Of a stretch of DNA of 64,000 nt, positions 5,644-60,345 are shown piece after piece (within the stretch, counting starts at the first letter, position 1; each line of letters starts with the position of its first letter). The translations under genes were made by a program, and so were the position numbers. The notes beneath the pieces were generated by a model. It made no database searches and was not told the DNA's origin. It saw only the letters and a program-made list of their open reading frames with translations. This stretch comes from Myxococcota bacterium (GTDB lineage Bacteria; Myxococcota_A; UBA9160; UBA6930). The stretch lies in assembly GCA_965223415.1 (NCBI GenBank), contig OZ245002.1, positions 928,001 through 992,000 on the forward strand, given 5' to 3'.

Positions 5644-5769
5644 GAATCCTCCTCGGGTTGCCGATGGACGCTAGCGAAGGTGGCCTGGATCACCGAAGCC
5701 CCGGTGAGCCCGGTTACACTCTGAACCCTTCGTGCGGACGTTGAACCGCCCATCCCCCGGAGCAAGACC

Positions 5770-6327
5770 GTGGCCCTCTTCGATCGAAGCGACAAAGGCG
5801 ACAAGACCGAGCGCAACGCCCCGCCGCCGCCCAAGGCCGCCGAGGCGCCGCCGAAGACCGAGGCGGCGAAGCCGCCGGAGGCCGAGCCGACCCAGCCGAA
5901 GTACCCGTCCAGCGGTGCACCGCTGGCGGAGGAGTCGGCACGGATCGGCCCGGGCCTCTCCGTGGAGGGCGAGGTCCATGGCGAAGAAGACCTCATCCTC
6001 GACGGCAGGGTGAAGGGCTCCCTCTCCCTCGGCCGCCACCAGCTCCTGGTGGGCGAGGCCGGCTGCGCCCGGGCCGACGTGAGCGCACGCAAGGTCGTGG
6101 TGTTCGGCGAGGTGATCGGCGACATCGAGGCGAGCGAGTGCGTGGAGCTGCGCCACACCGCCCGCGTGAAGGGCAACGTCCGGACACCGCGCCTGCGCAT
6201 GGACGAGGGCGCCGAGCTCCAGGGCCGGGTCGAGATGGCGGGCGGGGAGAAGAAGGCCGCCCAGCCGAAGACCAACGGGGCGAAGCCGCCGGAGGCCAGC
6301 GGCGAGGCGGCGCCGGCTCCGGCCTAG
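5770..6327 (+). CDS. Bactofilin (polymer-forming cytoskeletal protein)
   Basis: IGPGLSVEGEVHGEEDLILDGRVKG...V.GEV.GDI.A...VEL...ARV.GNV..PRL.MDEGA...G core with Pro/Ala-rich tails. Confidence 0.9.
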   Translation: MALFDRSDKGDKTERNAPPPPKAAEAPPKTEAAKPPEAEPTQPKYPSSGAPLAEESARIGPGLSVEGEVHGEEDLILDGRVKGSLSLGRHQLLVGEAGCARADVSARKVVVFGEVIGDIEASECVELRHTARVKGNVRTPRLRMDEGAELQGRVEMAGGEKKAAQPKTNGAKPPEASGEAAPAPA

Positions 6328-13883: not shown

Positions 13884-16745
13884 CTACGGCGCGATGATCG
13901 GCAGCTCGTTGCTCAGCAACCCCTGCGGGTTCTGGAGCTGGAGCAGGTGCACGCCGCTGGCCGTCGGCGGTGAGGTGAGGGTGATCTGCACCCGATCCGA
14001 GTCGCAGGTGGGCGAGAAGCTGCCGCCGATGCAGGTGACGGTACCGTCGGCCTTCTGGCCGTCGACGAAGATCGCGGCGCCGGACAGGACGTGGAGCCCG
14101 TCCACGTCCATCGGGCCCGGCAGGACCGGAAGGTCGGGCCGTCCCCCGTCGATGATTCCGAGGACCGGGTCCACGGCCGGCACCGCGAGTGCCGGCTGGG
14201 CGATGCCCGGCGACACGGCGGCCGGCAGCCGGGCCGTCAAGGTGACCAGCGTGGTCCCGTTCGCCGCCTCCGCGACGAGCGCGGCCCGCGAGAGCGTCGC
14301 CCCGCCCACCCGGTACTCGCCGGCGGTCCAGTTCGCGGTTGCGTCGCTGCCGTTGCGCTCGCCTTCGCCCAGAAGGGCGATGGCGCCGTCCGTGTCGGCC
14401 TGCTCGAGCACGTCGAGGGTGGCGTTGATCTCGGCCAGGAGGGTCGGATCGTTCACGGTGCGCGTATTCAGGGTGAGCTGGCGGCCGACGGCGCCGGAGT
14501 GGCCGGTCGAGGCCTCCTCGGTCATCTGGAAGACGTCGAAGGTGTCCGCCTTGTAGGTGCCGCGGAAGGCGCCCTCCTGCGCGGGCGTACCGAACGCCTG
14601 GGCCCAGGATGCCAGCTCGTCGAAGCCGAGCTCCGGCGTCCAGTCGACGTCGGTCTGGTCCGGGTTGAAGAAGGGGCTGCTCGGGTTGCTGGCCTGGAGC
14701 TGCTCTTCCACGAGGGTGACCCCCGCCGAGAACAGCAGGAAGCGGTCCGGGATGCCGCGCATGGTCGGCGCGTCCATGCCGCCCACGAAGAAGGCGCCGG
14801 TGCCCGCGCCGAAGGGGAGCGCATGGCACCCGCCGGGAGCGTCGGCGCAGGTCTCGGGCCCCTGGGTGATGCTTCCGGGCTGGTCGAGGAAGAACTGGTC
14901 GAAGCCGGCCAGGGCCGAGGCGGTGACGGCGTCGTCCAGCGGCCTCGAGCGCGCCGGCGGGTAGCTCACGCTCTTCAGGAAGTCGGCCATGTCGTCGCGT
15001 TCCTGGTTCGTGAGCTCCCCGCCGCCGGGGCAGCCGACGGACTGGTCGCACATCACCCCGGCGAGCGCGGCGTCCACCAGGTGGCGGAAGCAGGAGTGCT
15101 CGTCGCTGCAGTTCGAAGGCGCGACGCCATTCGATCCGACCTCGCCGTTCCGGCCGCCGAAGGGATCGCCGAGCACGCCGTCCCAGTGGAGCGGCACGGT
15201 ATCGCGCAGGCCGCGCACGGGCATGGTGGAGCGCGGCTCCTCCTGGTCGCAACCGGCGAAGGTGCACTCGGCGCCGATGATCCACAGCAGCTGGTCCGTG
15301 TGACCGTCCGGGTGGCAGCTCGCGCAGGCGAAGGTGCCCGTGGACGAGCCCTCTGCGGTGTTGAAGGCGATGCGGCCGCGGCGAATGCTGTCCGGCGTCG
15401 GGTCCGCGACCAGGTCCATGCGCACGACCTCGACCGGAGCCGCAGGGTTCGAGACGTCGATCACCGAGACGGTGCTCTCCAGGGTGTTCAGCACGTAGGC
15501 CGTCTCGGGAGCCCCGGCTCCGTCCGAAGCCAGCGCGACGCCGCGCGGAATCGCGCCGACGTCGAGGCGCGCGAGCACCGTGTTGGTGCCCGTGTCGAAG
15601 GTGAAGAAACGGCTGGAGGCGGCCGCCGTGGCGACGAGCACGTTGCCGTTGCCGCTCACCTGCACGCCGTAGGGCGTCCCGAGCTGGTTGCCGGCGGTCG
15701 GCTGCGCGGGCGGCAGGGGCTCGAGCTCGACGGCGCTCGGGGCTCCGCAGGAGGCGCCGCTGCAATCGATGCGCGCGATCTGGTTCAGGAAGGCGCGGTT
15801 CTCGAGATCGACCAGGCCCTCGCCCGCCGTGCCGGCGGCGCCGTTCTCGGTGTTGCGGGCGTCGGTCTGGGTGACGAAGACGTTGCCGCTGCCGTCGACG
15901 GCCAGGCCGTAGAGCAGCGTGCCCACGCCGGAGACGACGTCCGGGGGCTGGCTCAGGTCGGAGGTGTCGAAGACGAACACGTCGCGATCCGGCACGTCCG
16001 GGTCCTTCACCACGTCCGGATCGAAGCCTACGAACTGAGGGTTGGCCGCGAAGTTCACGTCCTGGAGGTCGAAAGTGCACTGGCTGGTGCCGAGGGCGAA
16101 GGGCGGACTCGGGCAGGAGGAGAGCTCGGAGGTGTTCCCGGACTCGAGCACCGCCACGTACAGCTTGCCGCCGGCGACGCGGATCGCCCGGGGCTCCTGG
16201 GCGTTCAGCTGGAGCAGGTTCGTCACGGCGTAGCTGGCGGTGTCGACGACGGCGATCTGGTTGCGGGAGGAGAGCGCCACGTAGGCCTCGCTGCCGTCCC
16301 CTTTGAAGGCCACGCCCGTGGGCTCGTCGAAGGTGGAGACCAGGGTGGTCGGGGCCACCGACTGGATCGTCTCCACGACCTCGAGGAAGGTCGCGCTGTT
16401 CGGGTCCGCGTCGATCACCGAGACGCTGTCCGACACGTGGTTCGTCACCCAGACCTCGAGCCCGTCCGGCCGCACCGCCACGCCGGAGGGCGCTAGGCCG
16501 ACCTGGACCGTTCCGAAGCGGGTGTTCGTCGTCGTGCGGAAGACGTCGAGCCGACTGGCCGGCGTGTTCACGACGAACAGGTGCGGCTGGGTCGGCGAGA
16601 GGGCGATCGGCCTGGCCTGGGGTGCGGCAAAGAGCTGGCTCCCGCTGGACTTCACCGTACCCCCGCAGGTCATGGCGCCGAGGACCGGGATCAGGCTTGC
16701 GAGGGCGAGGCTGGCCAGCCAGTGCGGTCGGGCGAACGAGGGCAT
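13884..16745 (-). CDS. Large exported YncE/YVTN beta-propeller plus cytochrome c (peroxidase-like) protein
   Basis: Signal peptide MPSFARPHWLASLALASLIPVLGAMTC, YVTN-like repeats (VWVTNHVSDSVSVID), CASCH heme motif, PLHWDG and a second CX6CH motif. AGGAGA RBS. Confidence 0.8.
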   Translation of the reverse strand: MPSFARPHWLASLALASLIPVLGAMTCGGTVKSSGSQLFAAPQARPIALSPTQPHLFVVNTPASRLDVFRTTTNTRFGTVQVGLAPSGVAVRPDGLEVWVTNHVSDSVSVIDADPNSATFLEVVETIQSVAPTTLVSTFDEPTGVAFKGDGSEAYVALSSRNQIAVVDTASYAVTNLLQLNAQEPRAIRVAGGKLYVAVLESGNTSELSSCPSPPFALGTSQCTFDLQDVNFAANPQFVGFDPDVVKDPDVPDRDVFVFDTSDLSQPPDVVSGVGTLLYGLAVDGSGNVFVTQTDARNTENGAAGTAGEGLVDLENRAFLNQIARIDCSGASCGAPSAVELEPLPPAQPTAGNQLGTPYGVQVSGNGNVLVATAAASSRFFTFDTGTNTVLARLDVGAIPRGVALASDGAGAPETAYVLNTLESTVSVIDVSNPAAPVEVVRMDLVADPTPDSIRRGRIAFNTAEGSSTGTFACASCHPDGHTDQLLWIIGAECTFAGCDQEEPRSTMPVRGLRDTVPLHWDGVLGDPFGGRNGEVGSNGVAPSNCSDEHSCFRHLVDAALAGVMCDQSVGCPGGGELTNQERDDMADFLKSVSYPPARSRPLDDAVTASALAGFDQFFLDQPGSITQGPETCADAPGGCHALPFGAGTGAFFVGGMDAPTMRGIPDRFLLFSAGVTLVEEQLQASNPSSPFFNPDQTDVDWTPELGFDELASWAQAFGTPAQEGAFRGTYKADTFDVFQMTEEASTGHSGAVGRQLTLNTRTVNDPTLLAEINATLDVLEQADTDGAIALLGEGERNGSDATANWTAGEYRVGGATLSRAALVAEAANGTTLVTLTARLPAAVSPGIAQPALAVPAVDPVLGIIDGGRPDLPVLPGPMDVDGLHVLSGAAIFVDGQKADGTVTCIGGSFSPTCDSDRVQITLTSPPTASGVHLLQLQNPQGLLSNELPIIAP

Positions 16746-16858
16746 GGGCGCGTCTCCTGCGAAGGCACTGGGCCGGATTCTACCCGAACGGGGTGGAGGT
16801 CTGGCCGCGGAGATCCGCGCAGGCGCTGCCCCCCCACGGGGCACGAGGGTCGATCGGG

Positions 16859-17815
16859 CTAGGGCGAGGGAGCCGGCGAGGGCGCACCCGAGGCGTGGCG
16901 CTGGATCCAATCGTAGGCCAGGGCCTCGGCGTCCTCTCGATCGCGAACCGGGAGCTGACGTCGCAGCTTCTGGAGCGACCGCAGTGCCCCGGGGTACCCG
17001 CCGCGGGCCGCGATGAAGGTCCACTTGTAGGCCTCCATCAGGTCGTGCTGGAGGCCCCCTCCGGCGGCGTAGAGGGAGCCGAGGGCGTATTGGGCGTCGG
17101 CCAGGCCCTGCTCGGCGGCCCGGCGGTACCAGCGCTCGGCTTCGAAGGGATCGCGCCCGACACCGGAGCCCTGCTCGTAGCTGAAGCCCAGGTTGTACTG
17201 ATCCATGGCGCTGCCCTGGGCCGCCGCGGCCCGGTACCAGCGCACGGCTTCGGCAGGATCGGTCTTCACGCCGTCGCCGAGGGCGTACTTCGTGGCCAGG
17301 GCCGACTGGGCCGCGAGATCGCCCTGCTCGGCGGCGGCCGCGTACCAATGCACGGCGCCGGCGGCGTCCCGCGGCACGCCGCGGCCCAGGTCGAGCATCG
17401 ATGCCAGCTGGGCCTGGGCCTTCACGTGGCCCTGTCCTGCAGAGCGCTCGTACCAGCGCGCCGCCTCGGCGGGCTGCTTCTCGGCGCCGACGCCGAAGTC
17501 GAGCAACAGGGCCAGCCGGTACTGGGCCTCCGCGTTTCCCGCCTCCGCGGCCTGGCGGAACCAGTGGGCGGCCTGGGCGTGGTCGACGTCGGTTCCCTTG
17601 CCGGTGAAGTAGATCTCGGCCACCGCGAGCTGGGCCTCCGCGTCGCCGGCCTCCGCCTTGACCAGCTGGGCGCGGAGCTCATCCTGGTACTGGCGGGTCG
17701 TCTGCTCGCGGCGGGCGAGCTCCGCCTGGACGCGGCTCGCGAGGGGATCGCTCGGGGCGCAGCCGAGAAGGCCGGCGAGCAGGGCGGCGAGAGCGCTGAT
17801 GCGATGGATCGGCAC
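16859..17815 (-). CDS. Sel1-like repeat lipoprotein
   Basis: Lipobox LLGC and about six repeats of A..WY..AA.QG...AQ..LG..Y..G.GV. Confidence 0.88.
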   Translation of the reverse strand: MPIHRISALAALLAGLLGCAPSDPLASRVQAELARREQTTRQYQDELRAQLVKAEAGDAEAQLAVAEIYFTGKGTDVDHAQAAHWFRQAAEAGNAEAQYRLALLLDFGVGAEKQPAEAARWYERSAGQGHVKAQAQLASMLDLGRGVPRDAAGAVHWYAAAAEQGDLAAQSALATKYALGDGVKTDPAEAVRWYRAAAAQGSAMDQYNLGFSYEQGSGVGRDPFEAERWYRRAAEQGLADAQYALGSLYAAGGGLQHDLMEAYKWTFIAARGGYPGALRSLQKLRRQLPVRDREDAEALAYDWIQRHASGAPSPAPSP

Positions 17816-19553: not shown

Positions 19554-20105
19554 CTACGAGAAGCTCACCTGCGGCGCGCTGCGCTCTGCAACCTCGTCGA
19601 GCTCGAAGTACTCCTTCTTCGTGATCGAGAAGAGGTTCGCGACGACGTTGCTCGGGAAGACGTCGGTGCCCGTGTTGAGATCGCGCACCACCGCGTTGTA
19701 GTAGCGGCGCGCGTTCTGGATCGCCTCCTCGATGGAAGAGAGCTCGCTCTGGAGGGAGAGGAAGTTCTCGTTCGCCTTGAGGTCCGGATAGGCCTCGGCC
19801 ACGGCGAACAGGCTCTTCAGCACCTGGGTCAGGTTGCCCTCGGCCGCGCCCTTCTCCCCGGGCGTGGTCGCCTGCATGGCTTGGCTGCGGGCCTGGGTGA
19901 CCTTCTCGAAGGTGCCGGCCTCGTGCTGGGCGTAGCCCTTCACCGTCTCGACGAGGTTCGGGATGAGCTCGTAGCGCCGTTTGAGTTGCACATCGATGTC
20001 GCTCCAGGCGCTCTCGCTCGAGTTGCGCAGCGCGACGAGCTTGTTGTAGGCGGATACCGCGTAGAGCGCGGCCGCGACGACGACGGCCAGCAGGATCCAG
20101 CTCAT
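19554..20105 (-). CDS. lemA: LemA family protein
   Basis: YNKLV..RN, WSDIDVQLKRRYELIPNLVETVKGY, AVAEAYPDLKA and ARRYYN..V. Confidence 0.95.
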   Translation of the reverse strand: MSWILLAVVVAAALYAVSAYNKLVALRNSSESAWSDIDVQLKRRYELIPNLVETVKGYAQHEAGTFEKVTQARSQAMQATTPGEKGAAEGNLTQVLKSLFAVAEAYPDLKANENFLSLQSELSSIEEAIQNARRYYNAVVRDLNTGTDVFPSNVVANLFSITKKEYFELDEVAERSAPQVSFS

Positions 20106-20300
20106 GACTCCTCCCTCCCTTCCGTGGCTCGGGGTGGGATCAGGCTAGCTCTCGGGTCCTCTCCCCGGCAGCCCGTGCGCAGGTGTGGCGACGAACACGA
20201 GCGGACGGGTACCGGGGTCACAAGGAACCCGGAATCCCCGACCGCTGTAATCCCTTCGAGCCGCGAGAAGGACGGGCCGGGCTCAAGGAGGATCTCCCTG

Positions 20301-21433: not shown

Positions 21434-23920
21434 TCACTCCCAGGCCGGCTCCGCGATCCCGTCGGCAGCCACCCGGAACGGCGCCCACACCAGGGCGACC
21501 CGCTCCACGGCGGTGTCGGACTTTCGCGTCCGGACCGGCAGCTCCACGAGCTCGAGCATGCTCTCGTCCACCTCGCGGCGGACCCGCTCGAGCTCGCTCT
21601 GGAGCTCCTGCTCCATCTCCTTGAGTTGCTCCTGCACGGCCTGGAGTTCCTCCTCGGCCCGCTCGATGTCGCCCTTCTCCCGCATCGCCCGGCTCGCCCC
21701 GCGGACCGCCGTCGTGGCCCGCCCGACGTTGCGGGCGCTGCCCAGCTTGCGGCCAAAGAGCGCCCCGAGCACCGTGGCGCCCATCGAGATCACGGTGCTG
21801 CGCTTGGAGGCGTCGTACTGCTCCTCCTCGCGCTCGAGCTTCTGCTCGGCGCGGCGCACCCGGGCCTCCAGACGCGCGATCTTCGGGGTGTACCTCTTGC
21901 GCAGCTTCTCGAGCTCCCGGTCCCGTTTCTCGTGGAGCTTCGTGCGCAGCCGCGCGCGGAAATCGCCCTCGCTCTCGCCGGGCTTCGAGGTCTCCTTGAG
22001 CTCCGCGCACTTCCACAGCGTCAACAGACACTCCCGGTAGACGTGGCTCTTCAGCATCTTGCCCCAACGCGGGTAGCTCTTGGCGCGGGTGGCGGCGGCG
22101 GGAAGCTCGCCGAAGGACGCCCCGGGCTCGGGCTCGCGCTCGAGATCGAGCAGCGCCGGATCGAGCCTGAGGCTGCCCTCGTCGTCCCAGGGCGAATCCC
22201 GGAGCGCCCCCACCAGAGGCACCTGGAAGCCCACCGTCTCCCAGCGGTCTACGCCGGCCCGGGTGTTGGCGTAGTGGATGCTCCCGACCCCGAGGAGCGT
22301 CGGCCGGTAGACGACCCTACCGTTGCCGATCGGCGCCACAACCGGCAGGAAGACCTGGTCGACTTCGGGCGCGACCACCGGAACCTCGGGCGCCACCGGG
22401 GCTTCGGCCTCCGGAGGCGGAACGGCCGCGACCGACGGAACCGGTGCGCCGGGCGCCGACGGCGCTGCCGCAGCGCCGCCCGCCTCGGCCTTCGGGGTGA
22501 GCCGGGCGATCTGCTCGCGGGTGAGCGGGCCGCGTAGGTACGACATCGCCCAGCGCGTGTGGAAGAGCACAGGCCCGTCCTCGTGGACGTTGTTGATCAG
22601 GAAGACCCGGCTGCCGAGACCCGCGAGCAGCCGCTCCATCTCGGCCCGGTCGAAGGCGGCGCCGGTCGTGGCGGACGCACCCTCCAGGCCCTCGATCACC
22701 CGCAGCTTGTCACGCTCGGTCTGGAGCCGCCCGAGCAACCAGGTGCCGGTGTTGGAGAGGCCCTTGTAGTCGAGGTCGACCGGGTTCTGGGTCGCGAGCA
22801 CGCAGCCGAGGCCATAGGCCCGCGCCTGCTTGAGTAGCGTGAGCATCGGCGTCTTCGACGGCGGGTTGGCGGTCGGCGGGAAGTAGCCGAAGACCTCGTC
22901 CATGTAGAGGATGGCGCGCAGGCTGTTCGTGCCCGGCTGGCTGCGCATCCACGCGACCATCTCGTTGAGCAGCAGCGTCACGAAGAACATGCGCTCGCTC
23001 TCGGAGAGGTGGGCGATCGACAGGATGGAGAGCCGCGGCTTGCCCTCCTCGGTGTAGAGGAGTCGCTGGACGTCGAGGGCCTCGCCCTCCATCCAGGCGG
23101 AGAAGCCCGGCGAGGCCAGCAGGTTGTTCAGGGTCATCGCCAGGGTCATGCGATCGGCGGCGGGGAAGAAGCTCTCCAGGTCGAAGACGCCGACGGTGTC
23201 GAAGGGCGGGCTCTGGATCTCGCGGATCAGGCTGGCCAGGTCGAGATCCCGGCCGGCGGACCAGGCGCGGTCGACCACGTTCGAGATGAGGATGTGCTCG
23301 CGGCTGCGGATCGGGTCCGGGTCCACGCCGAGCAGCGCGAGCAGGCCCGAAACGGTGGCCTGGATGCGCTCCCGGTGGGCGTCGGCGTCGGCCCGCAGGG
23401 CCTCGGGCGGCGCGGCGAGGCTCTTCAGGACGCGCAGGGGCCGGCCGGCGCTCGAGCCCGGCGTGTAGATGGCGAGGTCGACGGCCTCGCGGAAGGCGCG
23501 GATGCGCGCGCCGTCCTGACCCCAGTCGGCGAGCCCCTTCTTCCAGCGTCCGGCCACGGCCCGGGCGTGCTCGTCGGGCGTGCGCCCCTCCCGGCCGGCC
23601 TCCGCCTCGTCGATCCAGGGGCGGAAGTCGGCGGGGGCGAGATCCGGAAAGGTGAGCAGGAGGTTCCCCAGATCGCCCTTCGGATCGATGGCGATGGCCG
23701 GGATCCCGTCGAGGGCCGCCTCCTCGAGCAGTGAGACGCACAGGCCGGTCTTGCCGCTGCCGGTCATGCCCACACAGACCGCGTGGGTGGTCAGGTCCTT
23801 GGCGTCGTAGAGGAGCACCTCGTCGGTGCGCTCGCCGTCCGCGCCGACGGTGGCTCCGAGGTAGAAGGTGCCGAGCTTCTCGTAGGGGGCAGCCGCACCG
23901 CGGCTCTTCCGTGCCGTCAC
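21434..23920 (-). CDS. HerA/FtsK-superfamily ATPase (DUF87-like) with C-terminal coiled coil
   Basis: Walker A GMTGSGKT, IDPKGD, Walker B LYMDE and ATQNPVDLDYK. Confidence 0.85.
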   Translation of the reverse strand: MTARKSRGAAAPYEKLGTFYLGATVGADGERTDEVLLYDAKDLTTHAVCVGMTGSGKTGLCVSLLEEAALDGIPAIAIDPKGDLGNLLLTFPDLAPADFRPWIDEAEAGREGRTPDEHARAVAGRWKKGLADWGQDGARIRAFREAVDLAIYTPGSSAGRPLRVLKSLAAPPEALRADADAHRERIQATVSGLLALLGVDPDPIRSREHILISNVVDRAWSAGRDLDLASLIREIQSPPFDTVGVFDLESFFPAADRMTLAMTLNNLLASPGFSAWMEGEALDVQRLLYTEEGKPRLSILSIAHLSESERMFFVTLLLNEMVAWMRSQPGTNSLRAILYMDEVFGYFPPTANPPSKTPMLTLLKQARAYGLGCVLATQNPVDLDYKGLSNTGTWLLGRLQTERDKLRVIEGLEGASATTGAAFDRAEMERLLAGLGSRVFLINNVHEDGPVLFHTRWAMSYLRGPLTREQIARLTPKAEAGGAAAAPSAPGAPVPSVAAVPPPEAEAPVAPEVPVVAPEVDQVFLPVVAPIGNGRVVYRPTLLGVGSIHYANTRAGVDRWETVGFQVPLVGALRDSPWDDEGSLRLDPALLDLEREPEPGASFGELPAAATRAKSYPRWGKMLKSHVYRECLLTLWKCAELKETSKPGESEGDFRARLRTKLHEKRDRELEKLRKRYTPKIARLEARVRRAEQKLEREEEQYDASKRSTVISMGATVLGALFGRKLGSARNVGRATTAVRGASRAMREKGDIERAEEELQAVQEQLKEMEQELQSELERVRREVDESMLELVELPVRTRKSDTAVERVALVWAPFRVAADGIAEPAWE

Positions 23921-24075
23921 GGCCCCGTCTTACACCGGGCGAAGGGCCCTAGCAAACCGCCGGGGAGGGCCTCGGATGCGAGTGAGATCCGAGAGCCCGG
24001 CGGCCGTGGCCCGGCCCCTGGAATCGTGGTAAAGACGGGCCCCCGACCGTCTTCCGACGCCCGAGGAGACCCGCC

Positions 24076-54085: not shown

Positions 54086-55327
54086 TCAGCCCGTCTCTAC
54101 CCGGGGCGGGAGCGCGGCGCGCTCCTCGAGGCAGCCGTAGGCGGTCGGCGTGAGCTTGATCAGGGTGTGGAGCGGCATCTCCAGGTGGGGCGTCTCTTCG
54201 ATGGGCAGCTGGCGGAAGTAGGCGACCATCGCCCGCAGCACGGCGCGATGGGCGATCACCAGCACCGGCGTGCGATAGCGCTCGAGCTCGATCAGGACGC
54301 GATCGATGCGGTGGATCACGTCCAGATAGGACTCACCGCGCGGATAGCGGTAGGCGAGCTTGTCCTTCTTGCGCGCGGCGAACTCGCCGGGCATCGAGCG
54401 TTCGATCTCGGTGTAGGTCATGCCGTCGCAGGCGCCGGCCTGGATCTCGTCGAGGGCCTTCCACGACCCCGCCTCCACGCCGAGGGGCGCGGCCGTCTGG
54501 AGCGTGCGGCGCAGCGTGCTGGTCCACACGTCCAGATCCCCCTCGGGCGGGAACACCTCGCGAACGTGGACCGCCAGGTTGGTGGCGTACTCCTCCCCGG
54601 CCGGAGAGAGGGAGGCGTCGCCGCCGATCCGCCCATCCAGGTTGTAGAGGCTCTGGCCGTGGCGGGTCAGCCAGACCGGGCGCCGGGTCACCTGAAGGTT
54701 CGAGAGGAAGAAGACGACCCGCCCGACGATGTACCCGTAGACCTGGTTGATCACCACCTGCGCCCCGCGATTGCGCAGCCGCAGCCAGGGGCCCTCGTCT
54801 TCCCCCAGGGTCTCGTAGACCCGCTCGTAGTGGGCGATGCGCCGGCGGAAATCCGCCAGGGCGTCGGCCTCGGGCACGCCGCGGTAATCCGGCGAGCGGA
54901 GCTTCGTCTCGCGCAGGTTCGCCTCGATGATGGCCGGATCGTCGTTCACGATCTCGACGAAGAGGAGCTCCACGTCCTCCGCGAGGGCGCGCTCGCGGAT
55001 CCACTGGCGGCGCTCGCGGGTGGAGTTCGTGGCGTCGTAGACGGCGATTCGCCCGGGCCCCCGCAGCCACGCACAGGCCTCGTCCAGGGCCTCGCGGGCC
55101 AGCTCCGCCCGCCGCAGGGAGGCCTCCCGGTTCGCGGGATCGAAGAACTCGTGGGACGGGCCGGTCCCGACGGTGGCCCGACGGTGCTCTCCCACGTTGA
55201 AGGCCAGGGTCGGATACCCGAGCCAGGAGAGGTAGCCGACGAGCTTCCGCGCGGTGAAGGTCTTGCCGCGGGCCGGCAGCCCCACCATGGCGATCAGGTG
55301 CTTTCGCCCGCGCCGGGGCCGGCTCAT
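54086..55327 (-). CDS. Bifunctional 6-phosphofructo-2-kinase/fructose-2,6-bisphosphatase (eukaryotic PFKFB-type)
   Basis: Kinase motifs MVGLPARGKT, FNVGEHRR, DATNSTRERR and SPDY. Phosphatase motifs TRHGQS..N..GRIGGD, WKALDEI.AG.C, YRYPRGESY, IAHRAVLR and PLHTLIKLTP.AYGC. Confidence 0.93.
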   Translation of the reverse strand: MSRPRRGRKHLIAMVGLPARGKTFTARKLVGYLSWLGYPTLAFNVGEHRRATVGTGPSHEFFDPANREASLRRAELAREALDEACAWLRGPGRIAVYDATNSTRERRQWIRERALAEDVELLFVEIVNDDPAIIEANLRETKLRSPDYRGVPEADALADFRRRIAHYERVYETLGEDEGPWLRLRNRGAQVVINQVYGYIVGRVVFFLSNLQVTRRPVWLTRHGQSLYNLDGRIGGDASLSPAGEEYATNLAVHVREVFPPEGDLDVWTSTLRRTLQTAAPLGVEAGSWKALDEIQAGACDGMTYTEIERSMPGEFAARKKDKLAYRYPRGESYLDVIHRIDRVLIELERYRTPVLVIAHRAVLRAMVAYFRQLPIEETPHLEMPLHTLIKLTPTAYGCLEERAALPPRVETG

Positions 55328-55376
55328 CTGTCTCCACCCTCCCGGATGCGCAACCCTAGCAGCCGGAGGTGGCACC

Positions 55377-56618
55377 ATGGCGACGATCGGAATCCTGGTG
55401 GGCGGAGGCCCGGCCCCGGGCATCAACGGCGTGATCGGCGCGGCGGCCATCTATGCCCGCCGTCACGGCGCGCGAGTGAAGGGCCTGCTCGACGGCTTCC
55501 GCTGGCTGATGGAAGGCGATGCGAGCAAGGCGACGGACCTGCACATCGGCACCGTCTCCCGCATCCACCTGCTGGGCGGCTCGGTCCTGCAGACCTCGCG
55601 GGCGAATCCGACCAAGAACCCGGAGCACCTGCGGAAGGTGGTCTCCACCCTTCGCGAGCTCGAGATCGATCACCTGGTAACGATCGGCGGGGACGACACC
55701 TGCTACTCGGCGCTGCGCGTCGCCGAGGAGGCCGGTGACGCCATCCGGGTGGCCCACGTTCCGAAGACGATCGACAACGACCTCCCGTTGCCCGAGGGGA
55801 TCCCCACCTTCGGCTTCGAGACGGCGCGCGAGACCGGCGCCACCATCCTGAGCCATCTGATGGAGGACGCGCGCACCACCAGCCGCTGGTACCTCGCGGT
55901 GATGATGGGCCGCTCCGCGGGGCATCTGGCCCTGGGGGCGGCGAAGGCCGCCGGCGCCACCCTGGCCCTCGTCGGAGAGGAGTTCCCGGAGGGACCGATC
56001 CGGCTCGCCGAGGTCGTGCGGCGCATCGAGGCGTCCATCGTCAAGCGGATCGCCTTCCATCGGCCCTACGGCGTCGCCGTGGTGTCCGAAGGCATCGGCG
56101 AGCGGCTCCACCCGGAGGATCTCGAGCGGCTCCCGGAGCTCCCGCGGGACGATCACGGCCACGTGCGGCTGGCCGAGCTACCCCTGGGGCGCCTCCTGGT
56201 CGACGGTGTGAAGCAGGATCTCGGCGAGCTCGGGCTCTCGATGACGATGGTCGCCAAGGACGTGGGCTACGAGCTTCGCTGCGTGGCTCCGAACGCCTTC
56301 GACGCCGAGTACACCCGGGACCTGGGCGCCGGCGCCGTGCGCTGCCTGCTCGACGGCACCCACAAGGTGATGATCACCCGCGAGGGCAACGGCATCCATC
56401 CGGTGCCGCTCACCGACATCCTCGATCGCCAGACCGGCCGCACCCGCGTGCGCCTGCTCGACGTGACCAGCCCGTCCTACAGCATGGGGCGGGCGCTACA
56501 GGTTCGCCTCGAGCAGGAGGACCTCGAGGATCCCCGGGCGGTGCGGCTCCTGGAAGAGGCCACCGGCCGATCGATCGGCCAGCTCCAGGAGCGATGGGCG
56601 AGCGTGCTCGGAGGCTAG
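55377..56618 (+). CDS. pfp: PfkA-family phosphofructokinase, PPi-dependent type
   Basis: GGGPAPGIN, GGDDT (Asp, PPi-type), PKTIDND (Lys, PPi-type), MGRSAG and GYELRC. GGAGG RBS. Confidence 0.88.
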   Translation: MATIGILVGGGPAPGINGVIGAAAIYARRHGARVKGLLDGFRWLMEGDASKATDLHIGTVSRIHLLGGSVLQTSRANPTKNPEHLRKVVSTLRELEIDHLVTIGGDDTCYSALRVAEEAGDAIRVAHVPKTIDNDLPLPEGIPTFGFETARETGATILSHLMEDARTTSRWYLAVMMGRSAGHLALGAAKAAGATLALVGEEFPEGPIRLAEVVRRIEASIVKRIAFHRPYGVAVVSEGIGERLHPEDLERLPELPRDDHGHVRLAELPLGRLLVDGVKQDLGELGLSMTMVAKDVGYELRCVAPNAFDAEYTRDLGAGAVRCLLDGTHKVMITREGNGIHPVPLTDILDRQTGRTRVRLLDVTSPSYSMGRALQVRLEQEDLEDPRAVRLLEEATGRSIGQLQERWASVLGG

Positions 56619-56667
56619 GAGCCGACGCCCGCGGGGCACGTGCGCATTTCGCACGGCTCCACCGACG

Positions 56668-56788
56668 GTGACGGACGAAAACCACCGGGGCGGTGGCGGC
56701 CGATGCGCACCCAGGTAGTGACGAACGACACGAACGTCGCGGTGACGAACGACACCAACGAAGCGTCCGTCACTGTGACGAGAGTTAC
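56668..56788. repeat. Intergenic direct repeats GTGACGAACGACAC
   Basis: Exact copies at 56718 and 56742 (24-bp period), with degenerate copies at 56668 (GTGACGGACGAAAA) and 56775 (GTGACGAGAG). Confidence 0.65.
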
Positions 56789-56889: not shown

Positions 56890-56919
56890 TTGACCGCGAT
56901 CACGCGTCGACTCTATGAT
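56890..56919 (+). promoter_or_regulatory. Sigma70-type promoter of the actin operon
   Basis: TTGACC-N18-TATGAT, preceded by T tracts at about 56863 and 56883. Confidence 0.7.
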
Positions 56920-56967
56920 GCGCCTCGTTCGAACGGCCCAAACAGCAGTTGCCGCGGACGCTCCCCC

Positions 56968-57810
56968 ATGCGCGAACCCACGCCCACCGACGGTGGACAG
57001 AGCTTCAAGATCGACGTCGCGCGCATCATCGATGCGAGCTCGCGTCGCGTTGCGGCGGACGAGCTGGGTGGCCAGGTCGTCCGGGTGGTGGACGCCAGTC
57101 GCATCGACGAAGCGATCGCCCGGGCCGTCGATGACGCCTTGCGCGCCCAGGAGACCAAGCTCGGCCGCTCCCTTCGGCGCGAGGTGGGGTTGGAGGCGAG
57201 CCGGCGCTTCGTCGACCTGATGGGCCGGCACCAACGGGCGGAAGAGGAGCGCCGCGAGGCCCATCGAGCCCGCCGGAAGCTGGAGAAGGAGCTGGACGCG
57301 CTGCGCGAGCAGCTCGCCGCGGAGAGAGCCCGGCTCGAGGGCGAGCACACAAAGGCCGCCGAGCGCGCCTTCTCCCTCTCCGACGACGGGCTTCGGGAGC
57401 TCGAGGCGCACCTGCGCCGGATCGTTTGGGGGTTCGTGAGTGACCAAAGGCGGCGGCGAGCGTTGAGCCCCGGAGGGGCGGACCTCCCGGAGCTCGCTGA
57501 GCTCGAGCGGGTGCTCGGACGCGTGCTCCATCGAGTGCTGGTCCGTGAGCGACTCGCCGCCGCCAGGCCCCTGGATCCCCCGAGCTTGCGTGAGCTCGAG
57601 AACCTGACCCACCGGCTCTTCGACCTGCACGAGCGCCTGGGCGTGCAGGAGCGGGAGATCGCGGAGCTCCGTCGGCTCCGCTCGGTGCCGCCCCGCAGCC
57701 CGCGCGGCGCTTCGACGCCGCGCCCCGGGGGCAACGAGAAGCAGGCCGTCCTCGCGGTGATCTTCAACGAGAACCTGAAGCTCCGCGCCCAGTTCCACCA
57801 AGCCAGCTGA
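56968..57810 (+). CDS. Uncharacterised coiled-coil protein upstream of the MamK-like actin
   Basis: About 280 aa with E/R/L-rich heptad segments and C-terminal EKQAVLAVIFNENLKLR. Start codon uncertain. Confidence 0.72.
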   Translation: MREPTPTDGGQSFKIDVARIIDASSRRVAADELGGQVVRVVDASRIDEAIARAVDDALRAQETKLGRSLRREVGLEASRRFVDLMGRHQRAEEERREAHRARRKLEKELDALREQLAAERARLEGEHTKAAERAFSLSDDGLRELEAHLRRIVWGFVSDQRRRRALSPGGADLPELAELERVLGRVLHRVLVRERLAAARPLDPPSLRELENLTHRLFDLHERLGVQEREIAELRRLRSVPPRSPRGASTPRPGGNEKQAVLAVIFNENLKLRAQFHQAS

Positions 57811-57834
57811 TCCACAGGATCGAAAGGGAGTCCC

Positions 57835-58920
57835 TTGACCGAAACGAACCCCGGGCCCGAGGAGGCCCGTCCGCCCGCCGACATCCTCTATCTCGGAATC
57901 GACTTCGGAACCTCGCGAACGTCGATTGCGGCCAGCAACGGCGTCCGGGACACGGTGCTCTCCTACGTCGGCTACCCGAAGGACCACGTGGCCCGAAAGC
58001 TGCTCCAGAAGGACGCGCTCTTCGGGGAGGAGGCCCTGGAGAAGCAGCTGGCCCTCGACTTCTACCGGCCCCTCGCAGGAGGGCAGATCAAGCACTCCGA
58101 GGACGGCGAGCCAATGGACCCGAAGGTCTTCGAGGCCAACACCCGGGCGGCGGGCGAGCTGCTCCGGCACGCCATCAGCCTCGCGGGGGCGGAGGAGGGC
58201 GCAGTGGTCTACGGCGTGCTCGGATCGCCCGCCCAGGCCAGCATCAAGAACAAGAAGGCCCTGCTGGACGCCTGCGCCGGCGCCCTCGACTCGGTGATGC
58301 TCTGCTCGGAGCCCTTCGCCGTCGCCTACGGCATGGATCGCCTGGACGATGTGCTGGTCATCGACATCGGAGCCGGCACGACGGACCTGTGCCGCATGCA
58401 CGGCACGATGCCCGACGAGGCGGACCAGCTCACGATCCCCTTCGCCGGAGACTGGATCGATCGGCAGCTCGCCGAGCTCTTCGCCCGCAAGTGCGCGGGT
58501 GCCGACTTCACGCTCAACATGGTGAAGCAGGCGAAGGAGAAGTTCGCCTTCGTCACCGAGCCCCAGGCCCGGGCGATCGTCGAGTTTCCGGTGAAGGGGA
58601 AGCCGACCCAGTTCGACGTCACCGACGAGATCCGCGAGGGCTGTGGGCGCATCGTGCCCCACATCGTGAAGGGGCTCCAGGAGCTGATCGCCTCCTTCCA
58701 TCCGGAGTTCCAGGCGCGGCTGCGCCAGAACGTGCTGCTCGCTGGGGGAGGCGGGCAGATCATCGGCCTCGACATCGCCATCGAGAGCTACATGCGGGAG
58801 CACCTGGGAGGCGGAAACGTCACCCGGAGCCAGGAGCCCATGTACGGCGGGGCCCACGGTGCCCTGAAGATCGCCTACGACATGCCGGCCGAGTATTGGG
58901 AGCAGCTGAGCACCGGCTAG
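57835..58920 (+). CDS. MamK-like bacterial actin homologue
   Basis: YLGIDFGTS, VGYPKD, SEPFAVAYG.D.L, IDIGAGTTDLC...GT.P...DQ.T, GKP...DVT, SF.PE.Q...QN...AGGG, GAL..A...P..YW.QL; colinear with Magnetospirillum MamK as I recall it. TTG start after GGGAG. Confidence 0.9.
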   Translation: MTETNPGPEEARPPADILYLGIDFGTSRTSIAASNGVRDTVLSYVGYPKDHVARKLLQKDALFGEEALEKQLALDFYRPLAGGQIKHSEDGEPMDPKVFEANTRAAGELLRHAISLAGAEEGAVVYGVLGSPAQASIKNKKALLDACAGALDSVMLCSEPFAVAYGMDRLDDVLVIDIGAGTTDLCRMHGTMPDEADQLTIPFAGDWIDRQLAELFARKCAGADFTLNMVKQAKEKFAFVTEPQARAIVEFPVKGKPTQFDVTDEIREGCGRIVPHIVKGLQELIASFHPEFQARLRQNVLLAGGGGQIIGLDIAIESYMREHLGGGNVTRSQEPMYGGAHGALKIAYDMPAEYWEQLSTG

Positions 58921-58962
58921 CCTTACACCGCCGGTGCCGTCGAGCCGGGGCGGGGGCCGAGG

Positions 58963-60345
58963 GTGAAGTCGATCGAGGACGTGTTTCCGGCGCGCTCCGG
59001 GGAGGCGGGCGAGTACGTCGCCCGTCCGGCCGTGGAGCGCGCCCGAAGCGAGCTGCTGCAGCTGCTGCGAGGCGGCGAGACCTGCGTCCGGCTCGCCGGG
59101 CCGGCAGGCCTGGGCAAGACCCTCCTGCTCCGCCTCGTCGCCCAGGATCTGGGGCCCGACTGGCGCTGCGTCCACCTGTCGAACCCGCGGATCGACGCGG
59201 ACGAGCTGTGGAGACGCATCGCCCGGCGGCTGGCCTCCCGGGGCGCGGCGCCGCGGGTCGTGGCCCGGGTCGCAGCGCAGGCCTACGAGCGCCAGGGCGC
59301 GCTCCTGGTGATCGTCGACGACGCCCACCACCAGCCCGCGCCGACCCGGCGCGCGCTCGCCAGGGCTTGCGCCCATCACGCCGGGCTGCGCGTGTTGCTC
59401 TGCGAGACCGTTCCGGCCGGGGAATCGGACCAGGCGGGCCCCGGGGAGGTGTGGCTGCGCGAGCCCATGACGGCGGCGGAGGCGCGGGCGTACCTGCACG
59501 AGCGGCTCGATCGGGGGCGCGTCCCGGCGGAGCTGCGCGCGCGCTTCGACGGGCCGACGATCGACCGGCTGCAGCGCGAGGCGAAGGGAAGCGTCGCGAC
59601 CTTCCACGCCCTGGCCGGAGCGGTCCTGCGCGAGGAAGACGCCGCCGAGCGGGCAGCGAGCGAGGCCGTGACGCAGGCTCCGGCCCCCCGGGAGCCCGAG
59701 CCCCTGGTCGTGCTGGTTTCGGCCCCGGAGCCGCCGCCCCGGGAGGAACCCCCGAGGCTCCGCAGCGGGAGGCGTCCGCAGACGGTCCGCGAGGCGATCA
59801 AGGCCACGTCTCCGCGCCGGCGACCGCCGGCAGAGCTCCCGTCCGCTCGTCCTCCGGCGTCGACCCGGCGCCAGCCCGCAGTGCGGACCGCACCTGCGCC
59901 CGTCCCCGCGGACGACGCCCCCCCCCGGCGGGCGCTCCCCCGCGCGCGCTCGGGCTGGCTCGCCGGAAGTCTGGTGGTGGGGCTGCTGCTCGGAGTGGCC
60001 GGCACCCGGCTGATGGCGAGCGACCCCGACCCGGCCTCCCCCGTTCCGGAGCCGCCTCCCGTCGCGAGCGCTCCCCCGCCCGCGGTGCCGCTCGGGCGGA
60101 TCAACGTGAACGCGGTTCCCTGGGCGCGGATCGAGATCGACGGCGAGCCGGCGGGCGAGACGCCGCTCGGCGAGCACGAGCTGCCCCGCGGGCCCCACCG
60201 ACTGGTCGCGCGCTTCCCGGACGGGAGCGTGGTCGAGAGGACGGTGGAGCTCGGCAAGGAGGAGGTCTTCCTGCTGCTCCGCCCCGAGGACACCTCGTCC
60301 CCCGCTACCCCGACGAGCCCACTCGCGGAAGCACCCGCTCCGTGA
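58963..60345 (+). CDS. ExeA/GspA-like AAA ATPase, Pro-rich linker, TM helix and PEGA-like domain
   Basis: Walker A GPAGLGKT, Walker B VIVDDAH, EP.T..E...Y...RL, a TM segment, then INVNAVPWARIEIDG...GETP.......G.H. Confidence 0.8.
   Translation: MKSIEDVFPARSGEAGEYVARPAVERARSELLQLLRGGETCVRLAGPAGLGKTLLLRLVAQDLGPDWRCVHLSNPRIDADELWRRIARRLASRGAAPRVVARVAAQAYERQGALLVIVDDAHHQPAPTRRALARACAHHAGLRVLLCETVPAGESDQAGPGEVWLREPMTAAEARAYLHERLDRGRVPAELRARFDGPTIDRLQREAKGSVATFHALAGAVLREEDAAERAASEAVTQAPAPREPEPLVVLVSAPEPPPREEPPRLRSGRRPQTVREAIKATSPRRRPPAELPSARPPASTRRQPAVRTAPAPVPADDAPPRRALPRARSGWLAGSLVVGLLLGVAGTRLMASDPDPASPVPEPPPVASAPPPAVPLGRINVNAVPWARIEIDGEPAGETPLGEHELPRGPHRLVARFPDGSVVERTVELGKEEVFLLLRPEDTSSPATPTSPLAEAPAP

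Follow-up and report, generated by a model that had tools for sequence, protein, structure and literature searches.

A MamK-type actin gene and a conserved partner gene directly upstream of it as a probable two-gene cassette in a Myxococcota genome

The analyzed window, a stretch of 64,000 nucleotides (nt) from a Myxococcota bacterium (assembly GCA_965223415.1, contig OZ245002.1, positions 928,001 to 992,000; the coordinates below are those of the window), contained three consecutive genes on the + strand, designated g1, g2 and g3, the second of which encodes an actin-like ATPase of the MamK family. An earlier note, made from the sequence alone, had described them as an operon behind a sigma-70 promoter, consisting of a coiled-coil gene, a MamK-like actin gene and a gene for an ATPase with a transmembrane (TM) segment and a PEGA domain. 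According to the analysis of related loci, a somewhat different interpretation is rather probable, namely, that a non-magnetosome actin of the MamK type and an upstream adaptor with a groove-docking tail helix constitute a conserved cassette of two genes, not of three. The elements of the locus, based on the called open reading frames (ORFs), were as follows.

56890..56919, + strand: sigma-70-like promoter candidate, TTGACC-18-TATGAT, 10/12 consensus matches
56968..57810 (alternative start 56803), + strand: g1, coiled-coil gene, ORF call, 280 residues from the ATG at 56968
57835..58920, + strand: g2, MamK-family actin-like ATPase, 361 residues, TTG start
58963..60345, + strand: g3, AAA_22 ATPase-TM-PEGA-like gene, 460 residues, GTG start

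The ORF coordinates agree with the arrangement claimed in the earlier note, with gaps of 24 nt between g1 and g2 and of 42 nt between g2 and g3, and the sigma-70 site it had named is present at the positions listed. It should be noted that this site is promoter-like only, i.e., a match to the consensus, which is not in itself evidence of function; one such site was found, and the average over 50 shuffles was 0.0. The three frames are taken to be real genes because their guanine–cytosine (GC) content at third codon positions is coding-like (0.82, 0.91 and 0.90 for g1, g2 and g3, respectively, the window having about 72% GC throughout) and because each of them has homologues elsewhere. The protein collection searched contained the same forms of 280, 361 and 460 residues. 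The ATG at 56968 was accepted as the start of g1, since the promoter-like site lies 5′ of it, and the TTG start of g2 was preceded by AGGGAG. No terminator-like site was found on the + strand between positions 56400 and 60700, including the interval between g2 and g3. The g3 gene and a convergent gene encoding a luciferase-like monooxygenase overlap at the 3′ end of the latter, and g3 is therefore the last gene of the unit. A scan of the window against Rfam gave 0 matches at the gathering score.

The product of g2 matched the NCBIfam model NF040964 ("MamK family actin-like protein") with 407.2 bits (E-value = 4.7 × 10−122, profile positions 1–331 of 335), a small margin over the cut-off of 400 bits. 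When all PDB sequences were searched with phmmer, the best matches were Magnetospirillum MamK (5jyg, 5ljv and 5ljw; 242.2 bits, E-value = 8.3 × 10−71, residues 16–359 for 5jyg_A), followed by BeeR 8r2n (115 bits) and MreB 1jce (36.8 bits). The identity to Magnetospirillum MamK was about 36% (125 of 344 columns, counted by hand in the alignment). The motifs VGYPKD, SEPF.V.YG.D.L, GT.P...DQ.T and YW.QL, on which the earlier note had founded its claim of a MamK-type instead of an MreB-type protein, were all visible in the alignment of g2 to 5jyg/5ljv, and the claim is borne out by the NF040964 score together with the 242-bit MamK alignment. The segments GIDFGTSRT, VIDIGAGTTD, SEPF and LAGGGGQI likewise aligned with the MamK motifs and were invariant in 39 relatives; the phosphate 1 (DxGTS) and phosphate 2 (DIGAGTTD) sequences, the E of SEPF and the GGG adenosine loop are the nucleotide-binding motifs of the actin fold. 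On the basis of these comparisons, g2 is classified as a MamK-type and not an MreB-type actin.

Two other assignments of g2 were considered and rejected. As an MreB, it scored far below the NCBIfam cut-offs (42.2 and 29.4 bits with NF010539 and TIGR00904, the cut-offs being 293 and 365.75 bits, respectively), the Pfam family MreB_Mbl (PF06723) was matched at the superfamily level only (44.6 bits), and neither MreC nor MreD was recognized among the 37 other ORFs of the window. As a BeeR protein, it obtained 182.3 bits with NF053558 against a cut-off of 530 bits, and its score with the BeeR structure was less than half of that with MamK.

Of the 8000 candidates scored in the homology search with g2, more than 3045 reached E ≤ 0.001. 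Four close relatives, P0002–P0005, had identities of 86, 80, 73 and 71%, respectively, and were followed by many proteins at about 60%, whose names, where given, were "MamK family actin-like protein" or "rod shape-determining protein" of Planctomycetota; the nearest relatives with a lineage label were Planctomycetota actins. A scan of species-representative genomes confirmed at least 488 relatives of g2 (at least 599 stretches). The best 80 of these at least 488 relatives (54–63% identity, all from metagenome-assembled genomes (MAGs)) made up the sample of related loci, of which 74 were labelled as Planctomycetota lineages and six only as "bacterium". In a tree of 85 actins, the window actin and its four close relatives formed a clade (Shimodaira–Hasegawa-like approximate likelihood ratio test (SH-aLRT) 100) nested among the Planctomycetota actins; this was a quick maximum-likelihood tree, midpoint-rooted without an outgroup, and the placement of g2 relative to other actin families rests on the scores of the hidden Markov models (HMMs) and of the PDB search. 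A tblastn search with the actin against 72,556 plasmid records gave no match. Judging by sequence similarity, g2 belongs to a large non-magnetosome clade of the MamK family, found mainly in Planctomycetota and of the kind published as saltatorellin, and the actin alone is another member of an already recognized kind.

The main result of the comparison of the loci concerned the gene lying upstream of the actin gene. A tblastn search with g1 gave weak matches directly 5′ of the actin gene in a few of the 80 loci, and among the same-strand ORFs 5′ of the actin gene, 59 of 72 clustered in one group with g1. The alignment of the upstream ORFs revealed a C-terminal module with the consensus LERRIxKL...TE..L...GxASIYRxVQGL...KKELMxxIFxANLxLQK. 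An HMM of the partner family, which covered the C-terminal 83 positions of 46 sequences and from which the g1 of the window was left out, matched the same-strand ORF ending directly 5′ of the actin gene in 72 of the 80 loci, with E-values from 10−15 to 10−34, and had only three other matches among the 11,897 six-frame ORFs of the loci. As for the eight loci with no match, L039 and L060 had almost no upstream sequence, and the terminal-helix motif was still present in L020, L023, L045, L069, L070 and L078. A strict form of this motif ([ILMVA]xx[ILMVF][ILMVF]x[AEQS]N[ILMVA]x[LI][RKQ] near the C-terminus) occurred in 55 of 78 loci and in the window, compared with 3 of 10,050 background ORFs, and was usually located 2–28 residues from the C-terminus; the I, F and N of the helix were nearly invariant among 73 partner sequences. 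No other conserved neighbour was found within ±6 kb of the actin gene, the next commonest family being present in 13 of the 80 loci (ORFs of at least 150 residues). The identities of actin and partner co-varied (73 pairs, Spearman 0.51, Mantel p = 0.001), as is expected under co-inheritance.

The profile of the partner domain detected 982 representatives at E ≤ 0.001 (809 at E ≤ 10−10) among 1.84 billion proteins, and in nearly all of the matches listed the domain was situated at or near the C-terminal end. An N-terminal GGDEF domain was carried by 18 of the 72 upstream partners (L002, L004–L006, L013, L016, L035, L036, L040, L044, L049, L053, L055, L058, L072, L073, L077 and L079), and in the four sequences read (L002 and L004–L006) its signature was degenerate, GGAHN or GGSHN; such proteins would join a domain of the second-messenger type to an actin-binding tail. 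No Pfam or NCBIfam model exists for the C-terminal domain of the partner, comparison of the family profile with the PDB yielded coiled-coil noise only, and no description of the family was found in the literature searched, which did not include bioRxiv supplements. The syntenic partner family with its predicted groove-binding helix appears to be an undescribed part of the system. The word "uncharacterised" in the earlier note goes too far in the case of the actin, since proteins of its kind from Planctomycetota are named in NCBIfam and one of them, saltatorellin, has been shown in a preprint to form filaments; the note's view of the coiled-coil gene as a real partner of the actin is upheld by the domain found directly upstream in 72 of the 80 loci and by the controlled complex prediction given below.

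Several further observations were made in these loci. The three other matches of the partner HMM were extra partner copies unaccompanied by a second actin gene: a tandem pair in L059 (5574–7839), and copies lying 4–5 kb downstream in L064 (5954–7939) and L075 (13859–14923). Such copies could mean that several adaptors serve one actin. The terminal-helix motif was repeated in the upstream protein of L020, L023 and L045 (LAGLVQENAKLR). The actins of L020, L023, L039, L045, L060 and L070 formed one clade (SH-aLRT 100), and a gene for a serine recombinase/resolvase was situated 3′ of the actin gene in L020, L023, L039 and L070. The recurrent neighbour families of the 80 loci were secretin, ExbB/D, urocanase, histidine ammonia-lyase, sulfatase and HDOD; secretin and ExbB/ExbD genes were located 1–7 kb 3′ of the actin gene in 13 loci of one sub-clade (e.g., L026, 10175–15599, − strand).

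The g1 protein of the window matched no Pfam or NCBIfam family, and a feature search of the Atlas with it gave scores below 0.9, which were uninformative. Its AlphaFold model (mean predicted local distance difference test (pLDDT) 77.5) contained the following parts.

Residues 17–61, + strand: small α/β part at the N-terminus (AlphaFold model)
Residues 67–166 (100 residues), 173–198 and 204–238, + strand: long helices (AlphaFold model)
Residues 239–254, + strand: disordered linker (AlphaFold model)
57730..57804, residues 255–279, + strand: terminal amphipathic helix, predicted actin-docking element; confident AlphaFold helix containing LAVIFNENLKLR

The sequence LAVIFNENLKLR conforms to the strict helix motif and lies 7 residues from the end of the protein. 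The partner HMM aligned with residues 208–278 of 280, collinearly at the C-terminal end (18.0 bits, single-sequence E-value = 1.1 × 10−7). The closest homologue, and the only close one, was P0139 (60% identical over the full length), the terminal helix of which, AVLAVIFNENLKLRA, is identical to that of g1. The contig of P0139 is 25,843 nt long, as is the contig carrying P0002, the actin with 86% identity to g2, which suggests that the pair of actin and g1 is linked in the nearest relative as well. As far as can be judged from the sequence, g1 is probably a divergent member of the partner family.

Prediction of the complex was carried out for the actin (39-sequence alignment) with the last 100 residues of g1 (73-sequence alignment) in three runs and with three controls. 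The interaction prediction score from aligned errors (ipSAE) was 0.72, 0.71 and 0.72 for the actin and the g1 tail, and the best of the three controls had 0.00; 116 of 157 solved complexes attain the mark passed by this pair, as do 2 of 215 mismatched pairs. The runs shared at least 68% of contacts, with a partner pLDDT of at least 57. On the side of g1, the predicted interface comprised residues 257–279 (77–99 of the fragment), with L262, I265, F266 and N269 in the centre, and I265, F266 and N269 are among the nearly invariant positions of the family. On the side of the actin, it comprised residues 137–144, 155–165 (MLCSEPF...Y), 170–171, 190–192 (GTM) and 346–358 (...YWEQL), many of which are invariant or nearly invariant in the clade. 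These segments are taken to be the hydrophobic groove between subdomains IA and IIA, by homology to actin and not by superposition. The prediction supports docking of the g1 terminal helix into the hydrophobic groove of the actin. According to the available text of PMC5173319, this groove receives the D-loop of the next filament subunit, ParR binds the same groove on ParM, and the C-terminal helix of arcadin-2, as a 17-residue peptide, binds it and depolymerizes crenactin; helix-in-groove complexes have been solved for ParM:ParR (4A62) and crenactin:arcadin-2 (5LY3).

A number of points weigh against the two-gene interpretation or limit it. The ipSAE is the model's own confidence, and its calibration holds only roughly here, where own alignments were supplied to the fold; since such complexes have already been solved, the pass may reflect likeness instead of binding, and the assignment of the contact segments to the groove is, as stated, one by homology. 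The match of g1 to the partner HMM is weak, falling just beyond E = 10−3 in the search of 11,897 ORFs, and g1 does not contain GxASIYRxVQGL but has PPRSPRGASTPRPGG in its place, with a deletion of 6 residues; P0139 also does not contain this motif. Synteny in the nearest relative is deduced only from the two contigs of equal length, and the 80 loci include neither the genome of the window nor its nearest relatives. Furthermore, as no terminator was found between g2 and g3, a local role for g3 is possible.

The third gene encodes a protein with the following predicted parts.

59074..59400, residues 38–146, + strand: AAA_22 P-loop domain (PF13401, E-value = 1 × 10−8), with Walker A GPAGLGKT and Walker B VIVDD
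59956..60018, residues ~332–352, + strand: single predicted TM segment, the only 19-residue window with a Kyte–Doolittle mean above 1.6
60091..60279, residues 377–439, + strand: PEGA-like β-sandwich, predicted to be periplasmic; seven strands in the AlphaFold model, block pLDDT 84–94

The linker between the ATPase domain and the TM segment is disordered and rich in Pro, Ala and Arg, and the model places a short helix (336–343) between low-confidence linker stretches. Residues G46, G51, K52, D119 and D120 were invariant in 16 homologues, as were I390, D393, G398 and P401 of the distal part. The PEGA family PF08308 was matched with 18.3 bits, below the Pfam cut-off of 20.8; the homologue P0123, which like P0122 has the same architecture as g3, carries PF08308. 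A Foldseek search showed a resemblance of the ATPase part to the AAA+ modules of MuB, ORC/Cdc6, RuvBL, clamp loaders and TnsC. At E ≤ 0.001, homologues of g3 numbered 17 proteins including that of the window itself, the best of the others being 51% identical over 58% of the query. A feature-space search of the Atlas, which gives no alignment or E-value, ranked an AAA_22 cluster first (0.98); the phylum is on record for just 9 of its members and is most often Myxococcota. An AAA_22/PEGA cluster came second (0.92), with PEGA in 87% of its members and Acidobacteriota as the most frequent phylum.

The make-up of g3 is comparable with that of the ExeA/GspA AAA_22 ATPases, namely, an N-terminal AAA_22 domain, one TM segment and a periplasmic domain, and the source record of one weak homologue calls it "type II secretory pathway predicted ATPase ExeA". 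The periplasmic domain of ExeA binds peptidoglycan, whereas that of g3 is PEGA-like and not of the peptidoglycan-binding kind of ExeA. No secretion genes were found beside g3 in the Pfam scan of the window, and the occurrence of secretin genes near related actins, set beside this ExeA-like make-up, may be a coincidence.

As a conserved core partner of the actin, g3 was rejected. A tblastn search with g3 gave no match in any of the 80 related loci, and neither AAA_22 nor PEGA was detected in any of the 66 ORFs lying 3′ of the actin gene there. Conservation of the neighbourhood, one of the checks named in the earlier note, extended to the upstream partner (72 of 80 loci) and not to g3 (0 of 80), and the note's view of the TM protein as a membrane link is left unsupported. 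The g3 gene is probably co-transcribed with the cassette here and, judging by these searches, is a lineage-specific local neighbour that does not belong to the conserved cassette.

The best-supported interpretation, drawn by analogy, is that of an actin–adaptor pair of the ParM/ParR and MamK/MamJ type. Gene 2 would encode a polymerizing ATPase of the MamK actin family, polymerization being predicted from the sequence, and gene 1 a dedicated partner, largely helical and coiled-coil and presumably dimeric via its long helices. A flexible linker would present the C-terminal amphipathic helix (LAVIFNENLKLR in the window, consensus KKELMxxIFxANLxLQK), which in the model inserts into the IA/IIA groove, i.e., the barbed-end groove that takes the next filament subunit. 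By analogy with ParR, the partner would act at filament ends, and a dimer, having two helices, could bind both strands of a MamK-type filament. The N-terminal part, which is variable and is represented by a small α/β module in the g1 of the window and by a GGDEF domain in 18 of 72 relatives, may link the growth of the filament to a cargo or signal.

The main rival to the adaptor reading retains the same cassette and regards the partner as a sequestering or depolymerizing regulator similar to arcadin-2 or thymosin β4, the helix of which would fill the groove of free monomers until a signal arrives, in the relatives possibly via the GGDEF-type domain. The location of the predicted site in the groove of the longitudinal filament contact speaks for sequestration, as do the effect of the arcadin-2 peptide on crenactin described in the available text of PMC5173319, the signalling-type domain on one-quarter of the upstream partners (18 of 72) and the presence of one partner gene per actin gene, which fits 1:1 control. 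However, a protein of 250–400 residues with helices of 100 residues, sometimes exceeding 1000 residues in total, is larger than a sequestering peptide needs to be, and the two partner genes per actin in L059, L064 and L075 fit alternative adaptors better; neither point is decisive, and sequestration is considered unlikely. A still smaller probability is assigned to a three-gene positioning machine, in which the coiled-coil adaptor would be joined by the AAA_22-TM-PEGA protein as the anchor of the filaments to the envelope. The topology predicted for g3, namely, an ATPase in the cytoplasm followed by one TM segment and a β-sandwich in the periplasm, would suit such an anchor. In addition, 42 nt without a terminator-like site separate the actin stop codon from the start of g3, which lies on the + strand like the actin gene and is the last gene before the convergent one. 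Its domains, however, are missing downstream of the actin gene in the related loci (0 of 66 ORFs; 0 of 80 loci by tblastn), only 16 other homologues were found, none of them on the 25,843-nt contig that carries the nearest actin and g1 homologues, and the few recorded members of the nearest Atlas clusters are mostly from Myxococcota and Acidobacteriota; a machine of three genes is therefore judged quite improbable.

It is also necessary to consider a true magnetosome MamK, i.e., a host that is magnetotactic or has a silent magnetosome cluster elsewhere, with the g2 copy lying outside that cluster. The magnetosome families include CDF transporters (MamB/M), protease/PDZ proteins (MamE/O) and tetratricopeptide repeat (TPR) proteins (MamA). 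The Pfam scan of the 37 other ORFs of the window revealed no CDF-transporter, protease/PDZ or TPR family and no MreC/MreD, in agreement with the earlier note, in which mreC/mreD and mam genes were not recognised, save for a single LemA-family gene (19554–20144, − strand, E-value = 1 × 10−60), which stands alone 37 kb from the actin gene; MamQ is a protein of the LemA family, and this family is common outside magnetotactic bacteria. The signature genes mamABIKMQ were not found in the 64-kb window, nor were they recognized among the recurrent neighbours in the 80 loci. The other ORFs of the window encoded an acyl-CoA dehydrogenase, a thiolase, a carboxyl transferase, an amidase, a P450, an alkyl sulfatase, a wax-ester synthase, a phosphofructokinase (PFK) with 6-phosphofructo-2-kinase (6PF2K) and regulators, among others. 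A magnetosome origin would be consistent with the passing score of g2 in the MamK family model, with the LemA-family gene and with the suggestion from metagenomics, given in the available text of PMC12748827, that Planctomycetes and Myxococcota may include magnetotactic bacteria. It is contradicted by the identity of g2, about 36% to Magnetospirillum MamK vs. about 60% to hundreds of actins from Planctomycetota MAGs, by the recurrent neighbours listed above, among which no magnetosome family was recognized, and by the window itself, devoid of magnetosome families apart from the lone LemA gene. This alternative is scarcely credible; there is no sign of a magnetosome role for the actin–partner pair in these sequences, and such a role is very unlikely.

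Upstream of the cassette lies an intergenic region of 350 nt with a lower GC content, in which two imperfect tandem copies of a 24-nt sequence (GTGACGAACGACAC..., 88% identical, 56718–56765) are accompanied by short inverted repeats (56665–56776). These repeats are located approximately 125–170 nt 5′ of the promoter-like site and may be the binding site of a regulator. In 58 related loci, Tandem Repeats Finder (TRF) detected no conserved repeat array 5′ of the partner gene, and the 24-nt repeat of the window falls below the TRF threshold. A segregation system of the ParMRC type was rejected, as g1 has no recognized DNA-binding domain in Pfam, NCBIfam or the AlphaFold model and no conserved upstream repeats were found by TRF in the 58 loci.

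Among the other genes of the window, a bactofilin gene (PF04519, E-value = 1 × 10−23; 5725–6327, + strand), encoding a polymer-forming cytoskeletal protein, is situated 50 kb from the cassette. An ORF of 1264 residues (13884–17678, − strand) has a coding-like third-position GC of 0.84 and matched no Pfam family at E ≤ 10−5. A protein of 831 residues (21434–23929, − strand), encoded near BON-domain and LemA genes, showed a weak match to a HerA-like ATPase (E-value = 7 × 10−7). Directly 5′ of the cassette (54086–56618), a bifunctional gene of the 6-phosphofructo-2-kinase/fructose-2,6-bisphosphatase type on the − strand is divergent to a phosphofructokinase gene on the + strand; the bifunctional enzyme is a regulatory one that is uncommon in bacteria.

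Bacterial actins are understood from a small number of actin–adaptor pairs such as ParM–ParR, MamK–MamJ and crenactin–arcadin-2. Here, a MamK-type actin common in Planctomycetota has a syntenic partner, and the predicted contact amounts to a testable helix of 25 residues. A wider proposal, which is advanced tentatively and is on the whole doubtful, is that the actin and its partner with the IFxANLxL helix constitute a general bacterial actin–adaptor system of at least 982 clusters at 50% identity with swappable N-terminal modules, among them GGDEF domains; if true, the barbed-end groove of a cytomotive filament would receive second-messenger or cargo information directly. The copy in the window, with one motif lost and an envelope-spanning ATPase gained as a neighbour, may represent a variant that a different high-GC lineage carries or has received by transfer. 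For annotation, the gene lying 5′ of "MamK family" or "rod shape-determining" calls merits a family of its own, and the ATPase-TM-PEGA gene 3′ of the actin gene is not to be counted as a part of the system. The finding also bears on cell organization in bacteria devoid of FtsZ: since Planctomycetota have no FtsZ according to the available text of PMC11032199, the cassette could, under the wider proposal, belong to the machinery by which they bud, divide or change shape.

[quoted passage not shown] Both proteins are MamK-like actins, and saltatorellin comes from a non-magnetotactic, planctomycete-type bacterium of high GC content (67–70.5%). The C-terminus implied by the cloning primer of that work, ...YWEQLK, resembles ...YWEQLSTG of g2, a comparison that involves the primer and not the saltatorellin sequence itself. 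The strings "coiled", "operon", "upstream" and "neighbo" are absent from the main text of the preprint, taken without its supplements, and the partner gene is hence not described there. Planctobacterial "MamK actin-ancestors" are mentioned in the accessible part of PMC7203096. BeeR, a three-stranded tubular actin of Verrucomicrobiota described as a separate relative of MamK in the portion consulted of PMC11929497 (PDB 8R2N), shares with g2 its relationship to MamK and its occurrence in non-magnetotactic bacteria of the Planctomycetes–Verrucomicrobia–Chlamydiae (PVC) group.

The cassette resembles MamK–MamJ in that the actins belong to the same NCBIfam family and the adaptor gene lies directly 5′ of the actin gene; it differs in the actin identity of about 36% and in that no magnetosome genes were found near the cassette. 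MamJ, likened here by description only, is an acidic repetitive protein and not a coiled coil with the C-terminal domain of the partner. In magnetotactic Alphaproteobacteria, mamJ and mg-1g50 are located directly 5′ of mamK genes (PMC10653835, available text). A coiled-coil protein combined with a MamK-type actin is also known from Desulfovibrio magneticus RS-1, where, according to the available text of PMC12748827, the coiled-coil proteins Mad20/23/25/26 work with MamK and Mad28 on the organization of cargo; this likeness is again one of description, and the RS-1 proteins are magnetosomal. Compared with ParM–ParR and crenactin–arcadin-2, the cassette shows no sequence relationship of the partner and is chromosomal, whereas the organization is the same as that outlined for these pairs in the available text of PMC5173319: an actin-like ATPase beside a small partner with a groove-binding C-terminal helix, such as the one predicted here for g1.

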